Source: Candidatus Auribacterota bacterium
GTDB taxonomy: Bacteria; Auribacterota; UBA6266
Assembly (NCBI GenBank): GCA_023136205.1
Contig: JAGLRQ010000030.1
Coordinates: 1 to 17,600 of the forward strand
Direction: 5' to 3'
DNA: 17,600 nucleotides
Within the stretch, counting starts at the first letter, position 1. Each line of letters opens with the position of its first letter. A program made the translations under genes and the position numbers. Below are positions 8,233 through 11,655 of this stretch, one piece after another. The notes beneath the pieces were generated by a model, which was not told where the DNA came from, did no database searches, and saw only the letters and a list, made by a program, of their open reading frames with translations.

Positions 8233-11200
8233 TTAAATCTCTTCCTCTTTCATCAATATTACAGTTACGGGAGTGGTACTTCTGTCAACTATGGCGCGCA
8301 TTCTTTTTCTTGCCACAATTTTATCTCCCGGGTCAAAATTGGAATCTTTATTTTTATCAATTATTCTTTCCGCCTGGATAATTACTTCAAAGATATCGCT
8401 TCTTACAGTAATGAGATTGGCAATTTTTTCAAATATCTCCGGTGTAATAACAGTTCCATCAATAACATCACCTATTTTCTGATATGGGGTATTACCTATT
8501 ATTTGGGTCGCTTCCGCGGCATTAATTCCCGGCAGTGCCTGAAGGGCAACCCCCGACGCGGTATTGATATTTATTCTCCCCGGCACCCTGCCGGTTAAAG
8601 GCATGGTATTTCCCGCGGGCACAGAATTATTAACTGCTCTAGGTATAAGAACAAGGTAATCAAAATAATTTTCATTGTCGGGAACACCGGGAGCGCCGCC
8701 AAATGCATTTCTCCACCAGGCGGCAAGTTTAAATTGGAATGACCCTCCATTAATACAGTAAGGAGCTTCTTCAAACCTATCAAAACGATATGGATAAGAA
8801 GTCGCTCCATCCCATGTAGTTTTCCACGCGCTGTGATTGGGCAGAATATAATATATTGTATTAGAAGACCCGGAATCCGCGTATGTATCTGTTGCCGGGT
8901 CATAATCATAAAAATCCATCCTGAAGCTGTTCACTTCATCATAGTTGGGATCTTCAACTTTATCATCATCGTTCTTATATTTTCCATAAAGAACTAAATC
9001 GTAATAACCGTCGGGAACGTAAACGCCTTTTACACCGTTGGTATAGGTAAAGGTATCATGTCCACCTGCCCAGTTTGTCCTTCCATTAGTACCGCTTTTA
9101 AAACAACCGTTTCCGTTAGGGTCGGCGGCCGCGTCCCAGGCCCAGTTTGCCCCTGTATGGGAGGAACACTGCTCCGCGGCAATCACAATGCAATTGTTTG
9201 TAAACCTGTGGGCAATGTTCTTAAGATCCAAGTCAGAAAACGTACTGTTATAAGTTGTCTCAGCGAGATACATATTCCTCAGCATCCCCGCGCTCACCGC
9301 GGGTTCATCCAGAACAGCGTAATTGTTTATTGTTTTATAGGGTTCAGTGTTGGTAAAACTTGTGTCATTATTCGCTTTTCCCGGCGAAGCAAAAATTCCT
9401 GCCGCGGCGGTAAATCCATATCTTTCTTTCCACCGATGAATCCAGTCAAACGAACCAAAATGCTCCTGCTCTCTTGGAGCAAAAGGAGATTTGCATTCCT
9501 GCGCGCAATTAGCAGAGTATTCAGGATGCGGATTGTCGTCTTCCAGCCTATCATCACCATCAGTCACAATCTCATCGGAATCCTGCAAATCATAAAAACA
9601 ACTTGCTAACGTTATGTTAGGTGACGATTCCTCCTGAATCCACACCTCTCCACGCAAATGGTTACGATGCCATTCCGTATTGTCCCCCGGATCCTCCATT
9701 TGAAAAACATCGTATTGTTCTTCCGCATCGTTGCCCCATGTTATATCACCATTTCCATGGCAGGTAACAAAAGATACAAAATTAAATCCAGCGGCCCATG
9801 TCCCGCCAATAGGATTTCTTCTCGCGGCAAAAACAACATGTTCATTTGAAGCAATAACTCCACCCGGACCCATCATGGTCGTCGCATGATCAAGGTCCTG
9901 ATCTTTTGACTGGTAACCAGCGCCATCCCACCACTTTACCATAAGCTTAAGCCCATTTACCGGAATATCCTGTTTTGAACAATTCCAGACCTCAACATAG
10001 TTTGTATGGCCCCGTTGGTCAAGCTCCATGTTCTCTATACGAATTCCGTTTGAAAGCGGATCCGTAACATACCTGAATGTAATTATATCATTTCCCCCTC
10101 CGTCAAACCACCAGACCCCGGGATTGCTTACAGCGGATGGACTATTCCACCATTGAAATTGATCGTTGTTCGCATCTTCATCACCAAATGGACCTGCAGG
10201 TACTTCCAGAATTTCTGATTTAGTTCCAGCTGAATTAGTAAGCAGAAGAGTAAATTTGCCTATTTTATCATCGGTATCATCCCCCGGAGTACCGCTCTCA
10301 TCATACCAGCCTTTATATTTAACCTTAACCTCGTAATAACCGGGACGCCTGATATCAGGATTAAACGACCAGTCCCTTAGTACGCCTGTAGAGTCCCGCT
10401 CATGTTCATGAAAAGCCAATTTACCGTTATCAGTTACAAAACCAAAAGAAGAATCACCAAGCCAACCGTTCACACCAGCTGCGGGAGAATATTTAACATC
10501 CCATAAAGCCGGATTTTCACCGAATTCTCCAAATTTAATCATCTGATGGGGGTTTGTAAATACTTCATTAATCACCAGGCCTTCACAACCGAAATATTTA
10601 ATCCCCCCCAACACAACCTCGGTAGGAATACAATCAGTATCAAAATAATCTACCGCGTTTACGAACTTCTGCTGCCAGTTGGAGATGGTTGATGTGGCGG
10701 ATGAGTCACTGGTTTCCTCAGGATTCATAAACGGCCTGTACATATCATGCCAGGAAGTTAAGTGATTTAAATTTGTTTTGGGCAGCCAGTTTTCCCTCCA
10801 CCAGTTGCCGCTTCCGGGATCGCGGTAATTTGATATATCATGATCCCATGACCACAATGTGGCATAGTTTCTCCAATCATCTATATCATCCTGTCCAACA
10901 CCTGATACACACTGTGCAATCTGCTCCATGGTTGTCCACCTTGTGTCATTGTCCTGAGGTGACTCAAAAATATATTCACCGGGTTCATCAATGCCCTCAT
11001 TTGCCTCATCTATACTGTTGTCTCCATCATTATCCATAAAATCATTCATTAAAATATCATTACTATAATTATCATCAGTTGCCGAAAGCCCGGGCAGATT
11101 TCCTGTACCAAATCTGAATTCATTGATTCTCCGGGAAATTGCAGACCCTATCCCCCAAATTTCGGTCATGTCAACTTCATAAGTTGACCAGCCCTGACGA

Positions 11201-11655
11201 GCCGCGTTAAGATTATAACCCGCAACATTCAGGTTTATCTTTGAGGCCTCATCATTAATATATATCGCGAATCTGCCGAGAAGCCCCTCTCTATTTCCCC
11301 AGGGCGAATCCATATAGATCCACTTTGAGTCAGAATTCCCATCATCGTTCAAATCTACATCGGTACCATCAAATCCAGTCCACCAGCATTCGGAAAAATC
11401 ATCAAAAAGGTTGTTTGCTGCCGCCATATCCTCAAGCAAATCGTATCTTAAAATTTCTGCCGCGTATTCAAGTGCGGAACGGGTTAGGAGTTCTGTCTCA
11501 AGTTCATAGCGGTAGTTGTTGGCGAGTTTCGCCTCAATAGACATAGTGGTGGAAAATGTTACTGCCATAACAGAGAGGACCATGAGGATAAGAAGCGTAA
11601 CTATAAGCGCCATTCCCTCTTTTGATTTATAAAATTTTTGTTTGGATGTTCTCAT
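8233..11655 (-). CDS. gspK: giant GspK-like minor (tip) pseudopilin with a ~700-aa insertion including a split lamin-tail-domain-like module
   Basis: 1140 aa with an ATG start at 11655..11653.

GspK hallmarks:
- the N-terminus KEG|MALIVTLLILMVLSVMAVTF, which lacks Glu at +5;
- GRFAIYINDEASKINLN (res 127-143);
- C-terminal GRININTASGVALQALPGINAAEATQIIG (HhH, res 1026-1054);
- ITVRSDIFEVIIQAE.

Between these lie an Asp-rich putative Ca-binding stretch, NDFMDNDGDNSIDEANEGIDEPGEY (nt about 10972..11079), and LTD-like strands GLVINEVFTNP (LVINEV = 10578..10561) and NYVEVWNCSKQDIPVNGLKL...GGVIASNEHVVFA (YVEVWN = 9999..9982). Both nucleotide positions were verified by hand. Confidence 0.8.
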   Translation of the reverse strand: MRTSKQKFYKSKEGMALIVTLLILMVLSVMAVTFSTTMSIEAKLANNYRYELETELLTRSALEYAAEILRYDLLEDMAAANNLFDDFSECWWTGFDGTDVDLNDDGNSDSKWIYMDSPWGNREGLLGRFAIYINDEASKINLNVAGYNLNAARQGWSTYEVDMTEIWGIGSAISRRINEFRFGTGNLPGLSATDDNYSNDILMNDFMDNDGDNSIDEANEGIDEPGEYIFESPQDNDTRWTTMEQIAQCVSGVGQDDIDDWRNYATLWSWDHDISNYRDPGSGNWWRENWLPKTNLNHLTSWHDMYRPFMNPEETSDSSATSTISNWQQKFVNAVDYFDTDCIPTEVVLGGIKYFGCEGLVINEVFTNPHQMIKFGEFGENPALWDVKYSPAAGVNGWLGDSSFGFVTDNGKLAFHEHERDSTGVLRDWSFNPDIRRPGYYEVKVKYKGWYDESGTPGDDTDDKIGKFTLLLTNSAGTKSEILEVPAGPFGDEDANNDQFQWWNSPSAVSNPGVWWFDGGGNDIITFRYVTDPLSNGIRIENMELDQRGHTNYVEVWNCSKQDIPVNGLKLMVKWWDGAGYQSKDQDLDHATTMMGPGGVIASNEHVVFAARRNPIGGTWAAGFNFVSFVTCHGNGDITWGNDAEEQYDVFQMEDPGDNTEWHRNHLRGEVWIQEESSPNITLASCFYDLQDSDEIVTDGDDRLEDDNPHPEYSANCAQECKSPFAPREQEHFGSFDWIHRWKERYGFTAAAGIFASPGKANNDTSFTNTEPYKTINNYAVLDEPAVSAGMLRNMYLAETTYNSTFSDLDLKNIAHRFTNNCIVIAAEQCSSHTGANWAWDAAADPNGNGCFKSGTNGRTNWAGGHDTFTYTNGVKGVYVPDGYYDLVLYGKYKNDDDKVEDPNYDEVNSFRMDFYDYDPATDTYADSGSSNTIYYILPNHSAWKTTWDGATSYPYRFDRFEEAPYCINGGSFQFKLAAWWRNAFGGAPGVPDNENYFDYLVLIPRAVNNSVPAGNTMPLTGRVPGRININTASGVALQALPGINAAEATQIIGNTPYQKIGDVIDGTVITPEIFEKIANLITVRSDIFEVIIQAERIIDKNKDSNFDPGDKIVARKRMRAIVDRSTTPVTVILMKEEEI

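Follow-up and report, generated by a model that had tools for sequence, protein, structure and literature searches.

Filament-forming machines such as type II secretion systems (T2SS) and type IV pili use K-type minor pilins, whose homologues lack Glu+5 and which enter first and form the apical subunit (PMC13533445). The β-sheet of GspK is completed in cis by the protein's own C-terminal strand, a GspK hallmark, and, as in CpaL and ComZ, a large module lies between the pilin core and that strand (PMC13533445); the GspK α-domain caps the GspI–GspJ–GspK complex (3CI0; PMC13533445). The concept of modular pilins is likewise established (PMC8179133). The ways in which type IV filaments acquire new binding functions are under active study, and the solutions known so far are tip adhesins that stand apart from the pilins (PilY1) or pilin-attached modules (PilB, CpaL, ComZ). 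PilY1 itself is not a pilin but a protein of its own, with a β-propeller at its C-terminus. Here we describe a giant gene at 8233..11655 on the minus strand of a 17.6-kb stretch of Candidatus Auribacterota DNA (contig JAGLRQ010000030.1, positions 1 to 17,600; hereafter the window). We consider it probable that its product is a K-type minor pilin placed apically in a type IV filament, with a built-in adhesin or ligand binder. Its family may represent a third, more extreme answer, in which a multi-domain module is nested in the cap domain of the K-type pilin.

The reading frame is open for 1140 codons plus a stop, and its ATG lies 9 nt downstream of the stop codon of a J-like gene. Public data contain an identical protein (P0001) and two full-length orthologues at 57–58% identity (P0002 and P0003), so the gene is not an assembly artefact. 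The orthologous genes keep an identical gene order, and one of the two orthologues is annotated from a Candidatus Aureabacteria metagenome-assembled genome (MAG), which NCBI taxonomy now places in Candidatus Auribacterota, within the Planctomycetes–Verrucomicrobia–Chlamydiae (PVC) group. The product is best read as a GspK/PilX-type minor pilin of 1140 amino acids (aa). A class III leader, MRTSKQKFYKSKEG, is followed by MALIVTLL, and cleavage is expected after G14, giving the mature start MALIVTLLILMVLSVMAV. For comparison we aligned 69 full-length relatives of 937–1602 aa (alignment A3; a smaller alignment, A1, has 16 members). G14 is kept in 59 of the 69, and position +5, which is Val19 in the query, is A, L, I, V or T throughout and never Glu. 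Further along the chain are DNDGDNSIDEANEGIDEPGEY (residues 208–228), IYINDEASKINLN (131–143), GLVINEVFTNP (359–369), NYVEVWNCSKQDIPVNGLKL (552–571), RININTASGVALQALPG (1027–1043) and VRSDIFEV (1084–1091). The composition is unusual (D 9.1%, G 8.2%, N 8.1%, W 3.4%) and strongly acidic, with a net charge of –86, a pI of 4.4 and a pI of ~4.5 for each extra module. A sequence-only reading made earlier on this DNA had reported the 1140-aa frame at 8233–11655, quoted these motifs at the same residue numbers, noted an N-terminal helix without Glu+5 and remarked on the richness in Trp, Asp, Asn and Gly; all four observations stand. The layout of the protein is as follows, with the main support for each part in brackets.

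11422..11655, minus strand: residues 1–78, class III leader and long N-terminal pilin helix (PilX_N and GspK profiles; model helix 9–78)
11227..11421, minus strand: residues 79–143, first pilin β-strands, ending in the GspK signature GRFAIYINDEASKINLN (strands 96–135, predicted local distance difference test score (pLDDT) ~90)
10636..11226, minus strand: residues 144–340, enlarged first half of the GspK α-domain (T2SSK_1st and GspK matches in relatives; pLDDT 83–95)
10972..11043, minus strand: residues 205–228, Asp/Glu-rich motif DFMDNDGDNSIDEANEGIDEPGEY, a putative DxDxDG-type Ca2+ site (family conservation)
10555..10602, minus strand: residues 352–367, first strand of a lamin-tail domain (LTD), IKYFGCEGLVINEVFT (strand 360–366, pLDDT ~82–85)
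10009..10554, minus strand: residues 368–549, β-rich domain inserted within the LTD (modelled as all-β, pLDDT 45–79)
9376..10008, minus strand: residues 550–760, remainder of the LTD (NYVEVWNCSKQDIPVNGLKL ... SPGKAN) and further loops (Pfam LTD in relatives; Foldseek)
8590..9375, minus strand: residues 761–1022, linker helices and a second β-rich domain (GYYDLVLYG ... NYFDYLVLIP), leading to the helix-hairpin-helix (HHH) (strands 823–1005)
8407..8589, minus strand: residues 1023–1083, HHH subdomain, the second half of the α-domain (GRININTAS...) (HHH_3; T2SSK in relatives; pLDDT 91–97)
8236..8406, minus strand: residues 1084–1140, return to the pilin β-sheet (TVRSDIFEV...) (strands 1088–1099, 1112–1124 and 1131–1138; pLDDT 89–96)

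The relationship to GspK is visible at both ends of the protein. The NCBIfam profile T2SS_GspK (NF037980) matches with E=4.6e-14 (52.6 bits; curated cut-off 130), its best stretch placing residues 13–143 on profile positions 2–104, and Pfam HHH_3 passes its gathering threshold at residues 1027–1083 (29 bits against 27). PilX_N at residues 14–49 falls just short (25.3 bits against 25.5), and a Pfam scan of the intact protein (E<=1) returned no match to T2SSK, T2SSK_1st or LTD. Relatives supply more of the GspK scaffold: P0012 passes both T2SSK (PF03934, 35.6 bits, on its HHH region) and T2SSK_1st (PF21687, 26.5 bits, on its residues 138–246), the match of P0066 extends to position 242 of the GspK profile, and in P0002 T2SSK falls on the HHH region below threshold (18.7 bits). 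The signature at the end of the first strands is well kept, D135 being invariant and E136, K139, N141 and N143 present in at least 90% of the 69 sequences, with D135, E136, N141 and N143 all invariant in A1; near the other end, T1083, S1086 and R1125 are conserved in both alignments. Residues 144–340 belong to the ordinary GspK α-domain as its enlarged first half, because the same region in relatives matches T2SSK_1st and the GspK profile, and the truly extra part is therefore ~341–1022. These ~680 residues sit between the two halves of the α-domain, which is itself an insertion in the pilin sheet.

Structure prediction gave a compatible picture. An AlphaFold model built from the 69 sequences (mean pLDDT 74.8, predicted template-modelling score 0.77) replaced a 24-sequence run (pLDDT 59.7), and its pLDDT exceeds 85 at residues 20–270 and 1023–1140. 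Foldseek matched the model to GspK of enterotoxigenic Escherichia coli (3ci0_K) and to Pseudomonas aeruginosa XcpX (6utu_C and 9a1f_T) with probabilities of 0.99–1.00, the template-modelling (TM) score being only 0.22–0.26 over ~120–126 alignment columns. As modelled, the protein has a pilin fold with an HHH-containing α-domain, closed by its C-terminal strands. The GspK-like scaffold proposed in the sequence-only reading is thus upheld by the NCBIfam match, the HHH_3 match and the Foldseek matches. Of the ~880 residues that it counted between the two conserved blocks, 144–340 belong to the GspK α-domain, leaving ~680 that are extra.

Overall, the giant protein resembles GspK/XcpX (3CI0, 5VTM, 6UTU; NF037980; PF21687 plus PF03934) in its class III leader, lack of Glu+5, DEASKINLN and GRININTA...TxRSD signatures, α-domain with an HHH half within the pilin β-sheet, cis C-terminal strand, acidic sites and gene position after H, I and J. 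It differs in being 3–4 times larger, with ~680 extra residues (LTD and β domains) in the α-domain, in its profile score (52.6 versus 130 bits) and in that T2SS core genes are not nearby. When the family profile was compared with the PDB, the HHH region matched GspK (5vtm_X), ComEA and EEPD1. ComEA and human EEPD1 were found with E=6e-12 to 9e-8 and solved GspK more weakly (E=0.0028), which suggests that the HHH sequence of the family is nearer to the ancestral ComEA-type motif than that of proteobacterial GspK is. Whether the protein, P0066, the family profile or one built on residues 95–345 served as query, PDB sequence searches gave only HHH proteins and a single weak GspK match.

The second distinctive feature is a lamin-tail domain that has been split. 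In the query its strand motifs are LVINEV (360–365) and YVEVWN (553–558), and the pattern G-x-E-x4-N-E followed by E-x2-N is kept in 69 of 69 relatives; G356, E358, E555 and N558 never vary, and at least 63 of the sequences have N363 and E364. The Trp of the GW motif is present in 59 of the 69 and has been lost in the query's clade, where the query has Leu569. In an ordinary LTD the two motif blocks lie 10–15 residues apart. Here they are separated by 113–366 residues in every one of the 69 sequences, and by 176–184 in the query, depending on the choice of boundary. Pfam detects an LTD in several distant relatives (23–35% identity, 760–1500 aa) at 28–34 bits, with matches that start only at profile position 17–23. 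We performed a splice test on five proteins, in which a 20-residue segment with the INE motif was fused to the part after the insertion (for the query, removing residues 372–547, 176 in all) and Pfam was rescanned; the gathering threshold of Pfam LTD (PF00932) is 34.3 bits. The LTD scores before and after splicing were as follows.

Query: no hit for the post-insertion part; 19.3 bits spliced (E=0.0015)
P0003: 16.3 bits for the post-insertion part only; 25.3 bits spliced
P0006: 36.8 bits for the post-insertion part only; 47.1 bits spliced
P0012: 34.3 bits for the post-insertion part only; 40.7 bits spliced
P0015: 32.4 bits for the post-insertion part only; 45.2 bits spliced

The score rose in all five proteins, by 6–13 bits in the four relatives, and the start of the match moved from profile position 22–23 to position 7. 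Three distant relatives stood above the Pfam threshold once spliced (40.7–47.1 bits). The extension of the profile match to position 7 and the co-invariance of the motifs are sequence-profile support for the two segments belonging to one β-sandwich. Foldseek matched the model to lamin B1 (3jt0) and lamin A/C (1ifr, 3gef and 6rpr) with a probability of 1.00 and TM scores of 0.54–0.61, the LTD region behind these matches having a pLDDT of ~50–86; an immunoglobulin (Ig)-like β-sandwich is accordingly what the model predicts for this region. Judged by these profiles, the split LTD, which the sequence-only reading had proposed, is real at the family level. Compared with canonical LTDs (PF00932; nuclear lamins, the ExeM nuclease, CotH-LTD proteins), which are contiguous over ~110 aa, the giant family conserves the INE and E-x-E/V-L-x-N motifs and the predicted sandwich, and differs in that strand A is set apart by 113–366 aa; the query differs further in its score below the Pfam threshold and its replacement of the GW Trp by Leu569. 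The family profile also retrieves unrelated CotH-LTD proteins, with E=1e-9 to 1e-11. A census of modular pilins lists the pilin plus LTD architecture (IPR012902–IPR001322) in 6 proteins, without comment (PMC8179133). Our literature searches turned up no paper joining a lamin tail domain with a pseudopilin or GspK; nor did they yield any account of the giant family, of split LTDs or of a GspK with a nested LTD. The family would offer a natural example of a domain that tolerates an insertion of 113–366 residues after its first strand, and a concrete, testable role for a bacterial LTD.

Beyond the LTD, the extra mass consists of β modules. The best PDB match of the 69-sequence model was a family 6 carbohydrate-binding module (CBM6; 2cdp, and also 2cdo), with a probability of 1.00 and TM scores of 0.55–0.57 (0.57 for 2cdp), and other jelly-roll ligand binders matched as well, among them a porphyran CBM, the Nictaba lectin, the influenza haemagglutinin head and the Eph ligand-binding domain. 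At least one of the inserted β domains is thus modelled as a CBM6-like jelly roll. No Pfam CBM family matched the query or seven relatives, so the CBM6 likeness is one of fold only; nor did any Pfam family match the second β-rich domain (761–1022) in the query or the relatives scanned. This second domain has a conserved block, G-x-W-x-W ... G-x-Y-x-L ... F-D-Y-x-x-L-x-P. A duplication linking the LTD insert (368–549) with the C-terminal β domain (815–1022) was considered and set aside: the two share a G-x-Y-Y/L strand motif, and hhalign aligned 14 columns at G-YY (P=0.0034, probability 9%), which does not establish one.

The acidic motif in the first half of the α-domain, which the sequence-only reading had singled out as Asp-rich, proved to be conserved across the 69 relatives, with the consensus D-G-I-D-N-D-x-D-G-x-I-D-E-x-x-E-G-I-D-E-P-x-E-Y and with D208 in 66, D216 in 68 and E227 in 67 of the 69. 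We infer from this pattern that the motif may bind Ca2+. Canonical GspK binds two Ca2+ ions and XcpX three (PMC6211770), and a Ca2+ site in the α-domain is therefore expected rather than exotic. PDB sequence searches, including one with the profile of residues 95–345, did not map the motif onto the canonical GspK Ca2+ sites.

The family to which the protein belongs is large. A profile search of 1.84 billion cluster representatives (50%-identity clusters) retrieved 718 proteins at E<=1e-30, and ~90 of the best 150 matches are end-to-end, at 900–1600 aa, with a further group of 2000–3000 aa; a single-protein search of GTDB species representatives found no relative. The nested arrangement is conserved over hundreds of sequence clusters from uncultured PVC-group and other bacteria. 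Members are named in their sources as 'hypothetical protein' or 'LTD ...', and fragments as 'GspK, partial' or 'helix-hairpin-helix domain-containing protein, partial'; for annotation, the implication is that such fragments belong to one large family. The sequence-only reading had allowed that its extension might already be common and annotated, and the first half of this is correct, with hundreds of 50%-identity clusters and a Pfam LTD in several relatives, while no curated family or paper was found. The giant-K family is widespread in PVC-group and other uncultured bacteria, and oversized K-like pilins are not new in principle.

Genome mapping, which covers only a 1400-aa subgroup (~25% identical to the query), revealed multiple copies per genome: 14 loci in SRP178699_co1_462 and 4–7 in several other MAGs, among them 7 in GMC4.concoct.297 and 6 in co1_609. 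One contig carries four tandem paralogues at 66–80% identity (L012:951–17698; paralogue loci also in L008–L077). The carriers are Chlamydiota-labelled, UBP3 and ruminant-gut bins, and a regular-expression search found no prepilin genes within 6 kb of the subgroup's genes. P0014 and P0022, both distant members, have their giant gene in a conserved filament cluster, positioned between pilin genes and PilM/secretin genes. The cluster encodes a pair of T2SSE ATPases of MshEN type, another ATPase that is PilT-like, GspF, the pilins, a Beta_helix protein (930–2137 aa) and a PilM fusion (560–700 aa). The P0014 locus also holds a secretin with tetratricopeptide repeats (TPR-secretin), the P0022 locus stops inside the PilM gene, and the contig of P0015 starts just upstream of the giant gene and holds the PilM fusion and a TPR-secretin downstream. 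This type of cluster, seen in the distant members (L003:332–23669; L007:1–27608; L006:212–14480), resembles a separate kind of type IV filament system that is as yet unclassified, and a giant K gene may serve as a marker for unusual filament systems and paralogue expansions in metagenomes.

Two further comparisons place the family among known proteins. The Verru_Chthon cassette (proteins A–D; TIGR02600, TIGR02598, TIGR02599 and TIGR02596; Verrucomicrobia, Chthoniobacter) also comes from the PVC group and also has a giant K-like member, protein A, which is described by a 1296-position TIGRFAMs model and has three small prepilin-type proteins as its genetic partners. Weak matches to cassette proteins A, B, C and D come from the K-, I-, J- and H-like genes of the window. 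TIGR02600 reaches 20 bits on residues 14–65 of the query and 23–38 bits on the termini of seven relatives (N-terminus, DEASK and C-terminal motifs), against a cut-off of 332.3; because the matches are confined to the termini, they do not show the middle regions to be related. A literature search found no paper on this cassette. Streptococcus sanguinis PilB/PilC, Caulobacter crescentus CpaL and Thermus thermophilus ComZ share with the giant protein a pilin core bearing a large ligand-binding tip module, which in CpaL and ComZ likewise lies between the core and the closing C-terminal strand (PMC8179133, PMC13533445). Their modules are von Willebrand factor A, lectin or β-solenoid domains, whereas the giant protein has an LTD and jelly-roll-like domains, nested three levels deep (pilin fold, α-domain, LTD, insert), and no sequence kinship to them.

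Taken together, these observations suggest how the protein might work. The host filament would be a T2SS-like pseudopilus or a retractile pilus, and the giant protein, as the K-type subunit, would be part of the complex that primes filament assembly. Its α-domain would cap this complex, leaving the inserted module at the distal tip, where it may act as a Ca2+-stabilised adhesin or ligand binder with a polysaccharide or another surface as its likeliest target. Display of the extra mass at the tip, which the sequence-only reading had proposed, is a reasonable expectation because the module is inserted in the α-domain, which caps the tip in the solved GspI–GspJ–GspK complex. Among the roles offered in that reading (adhesin, substrate docking, nucleic-acid or envelope binding), the evidence favours an adhesin or glycan-type binder because of the CBM6-like predicted fold, the Trp-rich and very acidic sequence, the clustering of relatives with a PilT-like ATPase and the paralogue expansions. 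One chain would then do the work of PilX plus PilY1 in type IVa pili. The likely parallel with PilY1/PilC and PilX/PilK is that of a large Ca2+-dependent tip adhesin that helps to prime assembly by completing the β-sheet of the K-type pilin; in the giant protein, the adhesin-like part and the pilin form one polypeptide instead, and Pfam scans of the query and relatives detected no β-propeller/PilY1 family (IPR008707/PF05567).

Several points weigh against this tip-binder interpretation. The query itself fails every curated cut-off for GspK and LTD, and its LTD is the most degenerate, being absent from the intact Pfam scan and reaching 19.3 of the required 34.3 bits even when spliced. Confidence in the central part of the model is only moderate (pLDDT 45–80), the support for pairing residues 360–366 with the rest of the LTD comes from sequence profiles, and the CBM6 match is to the whole model, with residues 368–549 or ~815–1022 as candidate sources. 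The role of bacterial LTDs is unknown (PMC6085458). Moreover, neither the window nor the orthologous loci contain a GspC/D/E/F/L/M, ATPase, platform or secretin gene that would reveal the type of machine in the source organism.

What the window does contain is an array of pseudopilin genes on the minus strand, in the order G-G-G-H-I-J-K, with the giant gene last. These genes and the pair that follows them are listed below.

13490..15114, minus strand: three tandem GspG-like major pseudopilins (13490–14029, 14046–14648 and 14569–15114) (T2SSG at 29–40 bits against a threshold of 21; N_methyl)
12950..13459, minus strand: GspH-like minor pseudopilin (Pfam GspH PF12019, 23.7 bits against a threshold of 21; NCBIfam gspH, E=9.5e-7)
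12421..12969, minus strand: GspI/PilV-like minor pseudopilin (NCBIfam PilV E=1.8e-9 and gspI E=2.8e-4, sub-cut-off; N_methyl 26.4 bits)
11665..12402, minus strand: GspJ/PilW-like minor pseudopilin (Pfam N_methyl; NCBIfam gspJ E=9.5e-7, sub-cut-off)
6765..8096, minus strand: a pair of DUF1559 / H-X9-DG proteins of prepilin type, directly downstream of the giant gene (7452–8096 and 6765–7430) (SBP_bac_10, N_methyl, TIGR04294)

The GspG-like genes match NCBIfam gspG with E=1e-14 to 5e-18. The J-like protein also matches Verru_Chthon cassette protein C (E=4.8e-9); this match and that to gspJ are both N-terminal only and sub-cut-off. The H-I-J-K order is conserved in the orthologous loci L001, L004 and L005, as is the position of the DUF1559 pair, which may provide extra filament subunits typical of PVC bacteria. 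The open reading frames 14046–14648 and 14569–15114 overlap by 80 nt; the overlap disappears if the middle gene starts at an internal MKKEGFTILE (~14567), which is probably its true start. Farther downstream (1070–6560) are two large secreted-looking proteins, one of 870 aa and Ig-rich (Big_7, Glucodextran_B, Big_1 and a C-terminal LolA_like domain) and the other a 750-aa LCAT/PGAP1-type α/β-hydrolase, with a 208-aa polytopic membrane protein (3306–3932) between them. Locus L001 has a 1056-aa DUF900 hydrolase at the corresponding place. Such large proteins are candidates for cargo of the filament system or for its partners.

Such an array invites the alternative that the giant protein forms the tip of a classical T2SS pseudopilus that is not surface-exposed, its module docking or pushing cargo in the periplasm or the secretin vestibule. 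The match of all three major subunits to Pfam T2SSG, the T2SS-like G-H-I-J-K order and the candidate cargo just described, including the large DUF900 hydrolase downstream in L001, speak for this account. Yet GspC/D/E/F/L/M genes are not in the window, distant members share their clusters with PilM and a PilT-like ATPase, both of them hallmarks of retractile pili and not of T2SS, and the fold matches of the module are to lectin- and CBM-type binders. Many paralogues per genome also suit variable adhesins better than a single cargo dock, and we regard the T2SS account as unlikely. The HHH and LTD raise another thought, namely that a competence-type pilus carries the protein at its tip as a DNA receptor, whose ComEA-like HHH and LTD would bind extracellular DNA. 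In keeping with this, the family's HHH matches ComEA and EEPD1 better than GspK, LTDs are present in extracellular nucleases such as ExeM, and L001 has dprA and a comM-like gene ~7–8 kb downstream. Nucleic-acid binding is disfavoured because the protein is strongly acidic (net charge –86, pI 4.4, with every extra module at pI ~4.5). In addition, GspK normally has an HHH as part of its structure (Pfam T2SSK), the hairpins here are degenerate, with PGIN and GTVIT in place of GIG, dprA/comM are set apart from the operon by a transposase-like gene plus a toxin–antitoxin pair, and the LTD was dispensable for DNA degradation by ExeM in vivo (PMC6085458), making a DNA receptor highly improbable. The L001 genes concerned (15954–18269) are a RelB/YafQ toxin–antitoxin pair, dprA and a comM-like Mg-chelatase, 7–8 kb downstream of the giant gene and non-operonic; dprA and the comM-like gene are the sole hint of a competence link.

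An LTD could instead act as an envelope tether, fastening the filament base or the priming complex to the cell wall or the outer membrane. For bacterial LTDs, a membrane-directing role has been proposed (Mans et al. 2004, as relayed in PMC6085458; PMC6461901), and a cell-wall cluster, mreB-mreC-mreD-pbp2-response regulator-HD-GYP-rodA (window 15201–17469; L004:1–6319), immediately precedes the pseudopilin operon in the query's clade. This synteny with rodA is confined to close relatives and does not extend to distant family members, the membrane-tether role of LTDs is itself hypothetical (PMC6085458), and K-type pilins, which enter first, end up farthest from the base (PMC13533445); a tether thus appears quite improbable. 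We return to a tip-displayed binder as the preferred interpretation, in which an LTD nested in a K-type pilin is relevant to pilus biology and to what bacterial LTDs do, without being categorically new. A bolder version is doubtful: that giant K proteins define an unclassified type IV filament branch of PVC-group and other uncultured bacteria in which the tip adhesin is permanently fused into the priming pilin, libraries of interchangeable paralogues (up to 14 loci in one MAG, four of them in tandem) diversify the targets of the filaments, and the split LTD with its nested jelly roll is a new composite binding fold. If true, the giant-K paralogues would together act as a cassette system that sets the specificity of the pilus tip.

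Some features of the surroundings deserve brief mention. A promoter and terminator scan found sites no more numerous than in shuffled sequence. The HD-GYP protein upstream of the operon is likely a cyclic di-GMP phosphodiesterase. MshEN domains bind cyclic di-GMP, and a regulatory link between the HD-GYP protein and the MshEN ATPases of the relatives is possible. Over the 870-aa gene (window 4001–7000), GC skew turns positive (up to +0.195) with an AT skew of –0.226, whereas the rest of the minus-strand array is GC-skew negative; the shift likely reflects the Thr/Ser/Ile-rich composition bias. Finally, an IS200-type Y1 transposase-like gene at window 279–959 has a counterpart at the matching relative position in L001 (15199–15870), a locus whose proteins are only ~57% identical, which suggests that the gene is resident or domesticated and did not insert recently.

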